Shown in pieces: positions 6,001 through 9,000 of a stretch of 13,810 bases of DNA. Made by a program: the position numbers. The stretch is taken from IMG/VR virus record IMGVR_UViG_2695420521_000003; one strand, 5' to 3'. Position 1 is the first letter of the stretch, and the number at the start of each line of letters is the position of its first letter. This stretch comes from a virus (Duplodnaviria; Heunggongvirae; Uroviricota; Caudoviricetes).

Positions 6001-9000
6001 CAACAATATTAGGCGACGCCTAATATTGTTGTCAATAGGCTATGCCTAACAACCAAGAGGTAGGGATTGCCTAATGCAATGCACATAGGAGACTATTAAG
6101 CAATGCTTAGTGGTAAAGACTTAGGCCGAGCGATAGAGCAGGCCATTAATAAAAAAATTGCATCAGGAGCCGTCAAATCAAAGGCGGAGATCGCACGCCA
6201 TTTCAAAGTCCAACCACCATCAATCCATGACTGGATTAAGAAAGGTTCGATAAGTAAAGATAAACTTCCAGAACTATGGCGTTTCTTTTCTGATGTGGTT
6301 GGTCCAGAGCATTGGGGGCTTAACGAATACCCCATACCAACCCCTTCCTGCTCAGATTCAAAAAGAGAACTTTTAGACATAAACAGCCTTTATCAAGCCG
6401 CTTCTGATGAAAAAAGAGCAATTGTAGCCTTCCTCTTATCTGGAAATGCTGCGGAGCCTGGTTGGGTTGATTATGACGTTCGCGCCTACATTACTGCAAT
6501 GGAAATGAAGGTAAGTAACTATCTGAAAAATCAAGAATCAGAACGGAAAAGCCAGAACATCACCAAAACGGGAACTTAAACTTATATGGCCCGACGGGAA
6601 GCACCTAGATCCCGTTATTTAGCTCCCATTACCTCTTCCACATACCATCGCCTATTAGGTTGTGCGCAAAAGTATTAGGCATAGCCTATTGACAAGTAAT
6701 TAGGCATTACCTATAGTTTTCTCATACCAACCCACCCCGCCCCACAGAATGCAGGGCAATACTTCGAGTTACCAGGCAGTGGCCAGGGGTTAAGTAGCCA
6801 GCCCGAGGCGTAAGAACATGACGGCAGGGTTCAACTTTAATAACTATGCAGCAGGTTTTTGTTCCGCTACCCCGGCGTTAAGGGGAAATGAGGTCAACAT
6901 GGATACTATCGATCTTGGCAACAACGAATCTCTGGTGTACGGCGTGTTTCCCAACCAGGACGGCACGTTCACCGCGATGACGTATACCAAAAGCAAAACG
7001 TTTAAAACCGAAAATGGTGCCCGTCGCTGGCTGGAAAGAAACTCAGGTGAGTGATATGGATTTCGACACAATCATGGAAAAGGCTTACGAAGAATACTTC
7101 GAAGGCCTTGCCGAAGGCGAAGAAGCTCTCAGCTTCAGTGAGTTTAAACAGGCGCTTTCCAGCTCGGCAAAATCTAACGGCTGATAAGCGAAGCAGCACC
7201 GCGAGGAATCAGTATGCAGAAACGAGAACCCGTCATCATCGCGCCAGGCTATACCGATGATGAAATTTACGAATGGATGTGCGGGAAGGTACGCGCCATT
7301 AATGACCTGAAGCAGGCTGCTGACTATAAAGAGCGCCTCTCTAAAGAACTGGCGTCAGCGGAGCAGGATATTACCACTCTTGCAAAAAGCGCGGCATTAA
7401 ACGTTTCACGAGTGATTGAAAACTACTGACTGATGAGGCTGATGATGGAATTTAAAGATTTACCAATGCCATTCCAGGAAATGGCAGCGAATATAGTTCG
7501 CTCCCAACTGGCGACTCTTGACCTGAGTACTGTAGAAAAGGAAACCATCGATACTATATCCGGTAACGTGCGTCGTGCCTTTATAGGTCTGTATGAAGAG
7601 AAGCGCCCATTCGGCGGACAGAATTCGCCTGAAAACAAGAATCAAGCAAATGATGAGAAGCTGAAACACATTATCGCCTTACTTTTGGAAGACGCAAAAC
7701 GTCTACAGCAACTGGAACCAAATGCAGGCACAGAGGCCCGCATTTGGATTGCCATGAAATCACTCAAATGTGAAAGCAGTGATTATTTCAAAACCACAAT
7801 TAAAACTACTCAGCTTTCGGAAGAACTACTGAATAAATTGCCACAATAATATATTTTCTTATAGAGTGGTTAAAAATATGGGTCAGCATTATAGCTGACC
7901 CGAATAACAGAGAATATTTTAAATATTAGCTCGTAACTTGTGATTGTTCTTTAATAAATTCATACAAGCGCACAAGTTCTTTCAACTCTTCAAAGCACAT
8001 AGCGGAATTTTCAATTTTTCCAGCTTTGATTAGTGCCAAAAGAGCCTGATGTGCACAAGCATATGGATCAGTTACAGGGCTAATAATATCAACTTGCATC
8101 TTATCCTCCATTGAGGTTCTGGGTTAAAGATGGAGACCAACACGCGGCAACGTGTGGTCGTGCGCCGGACACGGATAAGAATCCGGCACTGACAGTTTAC
8201 TGAAAGAATATATCCCTGCAAAGTCAGGGCATAACGCGAAAGCGCACGGCGAGGCTGTTAGTTCATAAATGGTCTGTCGTTAAATTTTCGTCGACCGTGC
8301 GCTTCCGGTTGTGGCAATCCGCGAAATGGCGCGGCGGTAAGTATGGCGGGGTTATTCCTTCCCCGTTGAGGACACCGGGTTGTCAGGTTGACCATACGCT
8401 TAAGTGATAACCCCGCTGCAACGCCCTCTGTTATCAATTTTCTGGTGACGTTTGGCGGTATCAGTTTTACTCCGTGACTGCTCTGCCGCCCTTTTTAAAG
8501 TGAATTTTGTGATGTGGTGAATGCGGCTGAGCGCACGCGGAACAGTTAAAACCGAAAACAGTGTTATGGGTGGATTCTCTGTATCCGGCGTTAATTGTTA
8601 ACTGGTTAACGTCACCTGGAGGCACCAGGCACCGCATCAACAAAGTTCATTTGTAAAAATGGAGATAATTATGATTGCTCATCACTTCGGAACTGATGAG
8701 ATTCCTCGTCAGTGCGTGACCCCCGGTGATTATGTTATTCATAAAGGAAGAACATATATTGCTTCGGTAAACAACATTAAAAAACAACGGCTCTATATTC
8801 GTGATTTTTCCACACAACACTGTATTAAGGAAACCATGATTAAAGTCTTCCTTGGTCGTGATGGTTTACCTGTAAAAGCAGAGTCATGGTGAGCAGTAAT
8901 AAAATAACTGCCACAATACGACATTCAGCTTAATGAATACATCAGATTTGATTCTTATATGCCAGCAATGGCAGGGATTTGTTCATCCTTAAATCTGTCA

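Follow-up and report, generated by a model that had tools for sequence, protein, structure and literature searches.

DicF is among the oldest known bacterial small RNAs (sRNAs). The present analysis concerns a copy of it in a stretch of 13,810 nucleotides (nt) of a Caudoviricetes virus (IMG/VR record IMGVR_UViG_2695420521_000003), hereafter referred to as the window. The copy is situated in an early-left operon, downstream of a racR repressor gene, ydfA, ydfB, a ydfC-like gene and a further open reading frame (ORF), and is followed by a leader and by the gene kil. By comparison with the Qin and Rac prophages of Escherichia coli K-12, the operon is a three-block mosaic, in which Rac-type immunity and promoter sequences are followed by a Qin-type block reaching from ydfA into the leader, and a Rac-type kil replaces dicB and ydfD. 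The features are collected in Table 1. The closest complete genome is that of E. coli 382634_2f (NZ_CP039403.1; 98.6% identity over window positions 5600-9100).

Table 1. Features of the DicF operon and the adjoining prophage genes, with the blocks of K-12 similarity (window coordinates; aa, amino acids)
Feature	Position	Strand	Basis or remark
ydaT-like gene (CII-analogue)	5246-5671	-	Pfam YdaT_toxin, 37.9 bits (cutoff 21); 31% identical to K-12 YdaT
ydaS-like gene (Cro-analogue)	5655-5978	-	Pfam YdaS_toxin, 102 bits; 86% identical to K-12 YdaS; helix-turn-helix (HTH) protein in closest genome
Two putative RacR operators, OR-like	6009-6023, 6035-6049		TTAGGC-N3-GCCTA palindromes in racR-ydaS divergent region
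racR, repressor gene	6103-6579	+	NCBIfam equivalog NF049929, 244 bits (cutoff 200); 89% identical to K-12 RacR
Two putative RacR operators	6675-6689, 6700-6714		Palindromes of the same type, overlapping early-left promoter
Early-left (PL-like) promoter, predicted	6689-6717	+	TTGACA-17-TATAGT; 11/12 match to sigma-70 consensus
ydfA (DUF1391), Qin-type	6899-7054	+	100% aa identity to K-12 YdfA; Pfam DUF1391
ydfB, Qin-type	7056-7184	+	100% aa identity to K-12 YdfB
ydfC-like gene	7214-7429	+	57% identical to K-12 YdfC over 68 aa; phrog_1744
138-aa ORF, no assigned function	7433-7849	+	phrog_1363, E 2e-44
Upstream part of ~190-nt DicF precursor	8302-8438	+	5' coordinate inferred from published length
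DicF sRNA, 53 nt	8439-8491	+	Rfam RF00039 match; identity to K-12 b1574
Intrinsic terminator of DicF	8454-8496	+	Hairpin 8454-8490; U-tract TTTTT 8492-8496
Conserved structured leader	8492-8670	+	~180 nt; common to Qin (dicB leader), Rac (kilR leader) and many phage contigs
Qin-type to Rac-type crossover interval	8629-8633		Inside leader, about 40 nt before kil ATG
kil, KilR-family FtsZ inhibitor, 73 aa	8671-8892	+	NCBIfam NF008465, 139.7 bits (cutoff 92), profile 1-73/73
RecE-like exonuclease, next early-left operon gene	9016-11490	+	Partial NCBIfam exodeoxyribonuclease VIII match; exonuclease in closest genome
Excisionase-like gene	11543-11752		Prophage end
Integrase	11752-12777		Prophage end
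tRNA-Ser(CGA)	12830-12919	-
Host mtfA	12974-13810
Block	5648-6886		Best K-12 match Rac, 87% identity
Block	6861-7282		Best K-12 match Qin, 97% identity
Block	7283-8158		Essentially no K-12 match
Block	8159-8651		Best K-12 match Qin, 95% identity
Block	8486-8907		Best K-12 match Rac, 82% identity

Identity and boundaries of DicF

A scan of the whole window with Rfam cmscan at the gathering threshold returned three matches, one of which is DicF (RF00039) at 8440-8491 on the plus strand, with 76.7 bits (gathering score 48) and an E-value of 7.8e-16. The match covers the full length of the covariance model (1-52 of 52) with zero non-canonical pairs, and the window is identical at all 53 positions to dicF of K-12 MG1655 (b1574, annotated as 53 nt). 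The first-pass annotation, made from the sequence without database searches, had described a DicF-like element with a terminator and had named the Rfam model and the K-12 alignment as checks; both bear it out, and the element is DicF proper rather than merely DicF-like. The match is far beyond chance, and the sRNA is a member of the DicF family by every test that its sequence permits.

The interval originally assigned to the element, 8438-8496, corresponds to DicF together with one extra 5' T and the U-tract of the terminator. When folded in isolation, the 53-mer forms a 3' hairpin from nt 16 to 52 (-15.9 kcal/mol), which is followed in the window by the TTTTT tract. Similarity to K-12 extends into the precursor, where 188 of the 190 nt of segment 8302-8491 are shared and the only differences lie at 8318 and 8408.

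The gene downstream of DicF

The gene that follows DicF is, by profile and sequence similarity, that of a KilR-family FtsZ inhibitor. Inhibition of FtsZ and filamentation are known for K-12 KilR, and a 2025 study describes inhibition of both FtsZ and MreB-dependent elongation by KilR (PMC12482147). In addition to the NCBIfam match, the window Kil matches PHROG 294 (Kil; E 8e-33) and is 81% identical to K-12 KilR, the 14 of 73 residues that differ being located mostly in a divergent middle (residues 23-55). The ORF is intact, its ATG being preceded at a distance of 6 nt by a GGAG Shine-Dalgarno sequence (8661-8664).

Searches of the window by tblastn with K-12 DicB and YdfD gave best E-values of 3.3 and 0.5, respectively, with no match near the locus, and the sequence for the active 62-aa DicB is absent from the window. 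The earlier suggestions that the gene after DicF is not dicB and that DicF may have a different partner protein here are thus both supported. In the closest genome, the Prokaryotic Genome Annotation Pipeline (PGAP) places a "partial DicB" pseudogene ahead of kil. Its interpretation as a remnant of dicB was considered and rejected, as it corresponds to a 28-codon, GTG-initiated frame (8561-8644) within the shared leader. This frame is in phase with dicB in Qin, where it forms the 5' portion of the long dicB reading frame, and its survival in the window, alone among the parts of that frame, accounts for the label.

Mosaic structure and the shared leader

The blocks of Table 1 were delimited by blastn of the window against Qin and Rac of K-12. 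The switch from Rac-type to Qin-type sequence falls just 5' of ydfA, in a short stretch conserved across all three loci. The return to Rac-type sequence can be located from the sites that are informative between Qin and Rac: from 8485 to 8629, 33 of 34 such sites are Qin-type and the remaining one (8554) is neither, while from 8633 onward all are Rac-type, which places the crossover between 8629 and 8633.

K-12 Rac also carries an annotated sRNA, KilS (98 nt), located 176 nt upstream of kilR. In a three-way alignment KilS occupies the position of DicF and has in common with it the terminator stem GGCGG...CCGCC with the U-tract, the ATCAGTTTT arm and all of the leader that follows. The two differ in the loop and in the unpaired 5' segment, and KilS does not possess the anti-Shine-Dalgarno loop; with the DicF model it scores 39.1 bits, under the cutoff of 48 (E 4e-7). 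Judged by this alignment, Qin and Rac carry homologous cassettes, each composed of an sRNA, a leader and a division inhibitor, and the window represents a cross of the two. The mosaic exchange of the division-inhibition module that the first-pass annotation had proposed is therefore retained in modified form: an exchange has taken place, though not as the insertion of a foreign module but between two homologous cassettes through the leader that they share, since a diverged DicF homologue, KilS, precedes kilR in Rac. The homology of DicF and KilS is not claimed as new; Faubladier and Bouche in 1994 and Conter et al. in 1996 are reported to have already described a sequence resembling dicF next to kil in Rac. 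KilS has been validated by Northern blot, and its transcription from its own promoter is reported as possible, in a paper that does not mention DicF (PMC8175672).

The leader has a minimum free energy of -63.4 kcal/mol (z -5.3 relative to shuffled sequences). In a comparison of 63 distinct leaders, the blocks at the 5' and 3' ends hardly vary and the middle is hypervariable, and the consensus fold retains a closing helix of ~20 bp that joins the bases following the U-tract with the bases preceding the downstream Shine-Dalgarno sequence (8499-8519 with 8630-8651 in the window). Variation in the helix is mostly wobble-compatible, with UA to UG changes in 18 sequences, GC to GU in 19 and CG to UG in 10, and is suggestive of conservation as a structure; compensatory changes are seen in 3 of 44 pairs which, with the 5' arm fixed by the search pattern, is covariation too weak for a proven structure. 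As a matter of speculation, a helix of this length would suit RNase III, and the leader may serve as a cleavage site for that enzyme or as a linker for recombination. An assignment of the leader (8493-8678) to STnc100 (RF02076) was rejected, the full-length match reaching 37.4 bits against a gathering score of 47. Scores of the other leaders are also below this threshold (34.4 bits in Qin and in Escherichia phage Evi, 28 in Rac), and the published copies of STnc100 are located elsewhere, downstream of stx2.

Immunity module and early-left promoter

By protein similarity the immunity module is Rac-type, with RacR and a divergent ydaS-ydaT pair, in agreement with the first-pass annotation. The predicted early-left promoter is the sole strong promoter-like site between racR and DicF and is presumed to be the start of the DicF transcript. 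The segment in which it lies is Rac-type and aligns to the racR-ydaG intergenic region of K-12, and the same promoter sequence is present in K-12 Rac. The racR-ydaS divergent region contains a minus-strand promoter (TTGACA-18-TAATAT, 6035-6006).

In a pattern search, the palindrome TTAGGC-N3-RCCTAW was found at only four places in the 13.8 kb (7 strand matches, 0.12 expected), and the position and symmetry of these sites mark them as putative RacR operators. Their OR/OL-like layout, with two in the racR-ydaS divergent region and two at the early-left promoter, argues that RacR controls the DicF operon of the window, an extrapolation from work on K-12. In K-12, lowering of RacR raises ydaG/ydaF ~40-fold and kilR more than 70-fold (PMC6765115), and this derepression is consistent with control of the homologous window promoter by RacR.

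Frequency and related systems

The frequency of the arrangement was examined in 5,426 complete E. coli genomes with junction-spanning queries of the same design, matches with at least 80% coverage being counted. The DicF-dicB junction was found in 3,994 genomes and KilS-kilR in 1,752, as against 135 genomes with DicF-kil and one with KilS-dicB. Identity to the window is 98.5% or more in the best 40 of the 135 DicF-kil junctions and reaches 100% in one of them. Among leader-anchored viral contigs with 111 complete loci, DicF with DicB accounts for 70, KilS-type sRNAs with Kil for 19 and DicF with Kil for 2, both of the latter carrying the window-type kil allele. Only two genomes match positions 5600-9100 of the window at 80% coverage or more, so that the full RacR/ydfAB/DicF/kil combination is rarer still. 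The occurrence of DicF in a RacR context, which the first-pass annotation had singled out, is common in sequenced genomes, many of the genome matches holding racR together with dicB; it is the succession of DicF and kil that is the rarer part.

The prophage of E. coli 382634_2f shares with the window the DicF-leader-kil junction (100%), the RacR immunity, the cargo genes paa and hokD and an insertion site at tRNA-Ser/mtfA. Its annotation lists, in order, a ydaT-family gene, an HTH protein, racR, DUF1391, ydfB, two hypothetical genes, the "partial DicB" pseudogene, kil, an exonuclease, DUF4224, an integrase, tRNA-Ser and mtfA. Among deposited phage genomes, the DicF-kil arrangement was found only in Escherichia phage Evi (LR597642.1), with a junction identity of 98.3%. 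The regulator of Evi differs, having no similarity to RacR and weak similarity to DicA, which indicates that the DicF-kil block is not tied to RacR immunity. DicF is annotated in neither of these two records. The product name of kil in RefSeq, both in 382634_2f (9053-9274 of the NZ_CP039403.1 extract) and in many of the DicF-kil genomes, is 'cell division protein FtsZ'. With DicF missing and the product of kil misnamed in the RefSeq record of the closest genome, copies of DicF and their partners are under-counted.

The Qin dicBF operon of K-12 (dicA / ydfA-ydfB-ydfC-dicF-dicB-ydfD) has in common with the window YdfA, YdfB and DicF without a difference, a Qin-type leader up to 8629 and the logic of an early-left operon that directs both an sRNA and a small protein against FtsZ. 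It differs in having DicA and dicBp, where the window has RacR and a Rac-type promoter; the window also has an additional ~0.9 kb with the 138-aa ORF, a ydfC-like gene that is 57% identical and kil in place of dicB and ydfD. The Rac kilS-kilR locus shares with the window RacR/YdaS/YdaT, the early-left promoter region, a KilR-family gene and a homologous leader from the sRNA terminator to kil, but has KilS instead of DicF and ydaG-ydaF with sieB instead of ydfA-ydfB-ydfC. On this comparison the window operon departs from Qin dicBF in repressor, promoter, dicB and ydfD, and agrees with Rac in immunity and kil. DicF and parts of dicBF occur in several prophage contexts, at times in multiple copies (PMC5069750); multiple copies of DicF are present in the prophages CP-933M/O/P of enterohaemorrhagic E. 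coli O157:H7, for which the relevant portions of the same survey describe dicB-type neighbours and mention no kil partner. The Kil protein of phage lambda, outlined in PMC3961180 as a small early-left product that prevents FtsZ rings from assembling, resembles the window Kil by functional analogy only, and lambda has no DicF-type sRNA upstream of it. A literature search returned no paper on DicF followed by kil, the papers on DicF and kilR appearing, by title and abstract, to be general co-mentions. DicF itself is already known, and the arrangement is, from the comparisons above, an uncommon and already-sequenced recombinant of two known modules.

Proposed mode of action and alternative explanations

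It is considered highly probable that the window contains a bona fide dicF in the mosaic early-left operon of a lambdoid prophage at tRNA-Ser(CGA) beside mtfA, and that the locus operates as follows. On loss of RacR repression, transcription would proceed from the early-left promoter through ydfA and ydfB, the next two ORFs and the precursor sequence. Cleavage by RNase III and subsequently by RNase E would define where DicF begins, and its 3' end would be set by the intrinsic terminator. The 53-nt DicF, together with Hfq, would pair with the ribosome-binding site of ftsZ mRNA, and also with the xylR, pykA and manX mRNAs, such that synthesis of FtsZ is blocked. Where transcription continues past the terminator, the mRNA would include the structured leader and kil, and Kil would inhibit the FtsZ already present; expression of kil by this route is inferred for the window locus. 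The prophage would thereby act on cell division at the levels of RNA and protein, as Qin does, with Kil instead of the MinC-dependent DicB.

Much of this scheme is established for K-12. The polycistronic transcript is processed there by RNase III to a 190-nt species and by RNase E to the 53-nt DicF, with no internal promoter, and DicF accumulates from the operon in the stationary phase (bioRxiv 10.1101/2023.04.14.536235). K-12 DicF pairs directly with ftsZ and represses translation with the aid of Hfq; xylR and pykA are further targets, and its action in trans was confirmed through compensatory mutations (PMC5069750). As the RNA sequences are the same, these findings on processing, Hfq dependence and targets should carry over to the window locus. 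The complementarity to the ftsZ ribosome-binding region, another check named at the outset, was examined with the K-12 ftsZ leader, the host's own ftsZ lying outside the window: nt 25-36 of DicF pair with positions -12 to -1 of ftsZ at 11 of 12 positions, and the GGAG is covered.

Several considerations weigh against the proposed mode of action. The locus is known here from its sequence alone, and the prophage may be defective. The substitution of K-12 ftsZ for the leader of the host applies to the pairing. The global duplex energy of DicF with ftsZ -70 to +40 (-38.5 kcal/mol), tried as a test of targeting, proved uninformative, as 109 of 1,000 shuffled sequences were as good as the real DicF; the claim that ftsZ is a target therefore rests on identity to an RNA already tested in K-12 and on the explicit pairing. 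The palindromes owe their operator label solely to position and symmetry. Furthermore, kilR of K-12 is silenced by Rho/NusG (PMC12482147), from which it follows that read-through into kil may be rare.

The silencing of K-12 kilR also favours an explanation of a different kind, in which DicF and kil are silent relics in a decaying prophage, never meaningfully expressed, and their conservation reflects recent acquisition. The tight repression of K-12 DicF and DicB in laboratory conditions agrees with such an explanation, and the near-identity of the 135 DicF-kil junctions could result from recent spread. It is nevertheless judged improbable, as the promoter, palindromes, precursor, terminator, Shine-Dalgarno sequence and kil ORF are all intact, the equivalent K-12 operon yields DicF in the stationary phase, the same arrangement is found in the deposited genome of phage Evi, and about 87% of complete E. 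coli genomes have retained a DicF-type locus. Another explanation, to which very little probability is assigned, regards the DicF hairpin and the leader as mainly a cis element, which would restrict expression of the toxic kil through termination, attenuation and processing, the role in trans being secondary. What DicF, KilS and other alleles have conserved is the base of the terminator hairpin (GGCGG...CCGCC with the U-tract) together with the leader, the variation being in the 5' seed and the loop, and the leader folds well, with its closing helix adjoining the Shine-Dalgarno sequence of kil. However, all 53 nt are kept in the window, with the anti-Shine-Dalgarno loop and the 5' part among them, exactly as in the K-12 RNA validated in trans, and roles in cis and in trans are not mutually exclusive.

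In the proposed mode of action, DicF is here under RacR instead of DicA and has Kil as its protein partner in place of DicB. Such strains would accordingly release DicF under whatever conditions derepress Rac-type prophages, and their protein arm would be independent of MinC, unlike that of DicB. The linkage between sRNA type and protein type is strong but incomplete (3,994 and 1,752 genomes versus 135 and 1), and the exceptions provide natural recombinants for asking whether DicF and its partners are co-adapted. The spread of DicF across prophages is already documented; in this respect the window locus adds little, its modest value lying in the annotation gap, the link to RacR and Kil, and the set of recombinants.

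Allelic variety of the sRNA position

The sRNA position, taken as the 75 nt 5' of the leader, is polymorphic, with 37 distinct alleles in 120 IMG/VR loci. Some IMG/VR contigs carry apparent chimeras, in which the KilS 5' end is joined to the DicF anti-Shine-Dalgarno loop or the DicF 5' end to other hairpins; further alleles include a GGTGG/CCACC stem variant and at least one other 5' type (CCATGTTGATTACC...). In some contigs (L036, L066, L069, L076, L091, L094 and others) the leader is followed by neither dicB nor kil but by a third type (…AAAGTTCACTTCGGTGATGAAAGG…ATG…). K-12 KilS and the core sRNA RprA (positions 60-75) have in common an exact 16-mer, ATTGCTGTGTGTAGTC, which is not present in the window and which in both RNAs lies directly 5' of the terminator hairpin. 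This hints that the prophage sRNA mimics part of RprA.

A broader view, put forward tentatively and with somewhat less than even confidence, is that DicF is one allele of a polymorphic sRNA position in the early-left operons of lambdoid phages, and that the 5' seed, the terminator hairpin and the division-inhibitor gene (dicB-ydfD, kil or the third gene) reassort independently of one another by recombination at the conserved ends of the leader. The ~20-bp helix may then be cleaved by RNase III, the sRNA being separated in this way from the mRNA of the toxin. KilS would be a paralogue of DicF with a seed that copies 16 nt of RprA, and the DicF-kil locus of the window would be a rare cross between the two main haplotypes.

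Other features of the prophage

The segment from ~7283 to 8158 is nearly without counterpart in K-12 Qin or Rac, one weak match of 58 nt being found. An antisense hypothetical gene is annotated in this segment in the closest genome and in phage Evi, and a terminator-like hairpin is present within it on the minus strand (7901-7880). The tRNA-Ser(CGA) gene next to the integrase is presumably the attachment site of the prophage.

A sok antitoxin RNA (RF01794, 103.9 bits) was identified at 778-927 on the minus strand together with a hok-family ORF (625-837, minus strand; named hokD in the closest genome), the two forming a type I toxin-antitoxin pair. The 252-aa ORF at 1119-1877 (minus strand) corresponds to the AcfC-family adhesin Paa (porcine attaching-effacing associated) of the closest genome and of PPompW phages, a virulence cargo adjoining replication genes.

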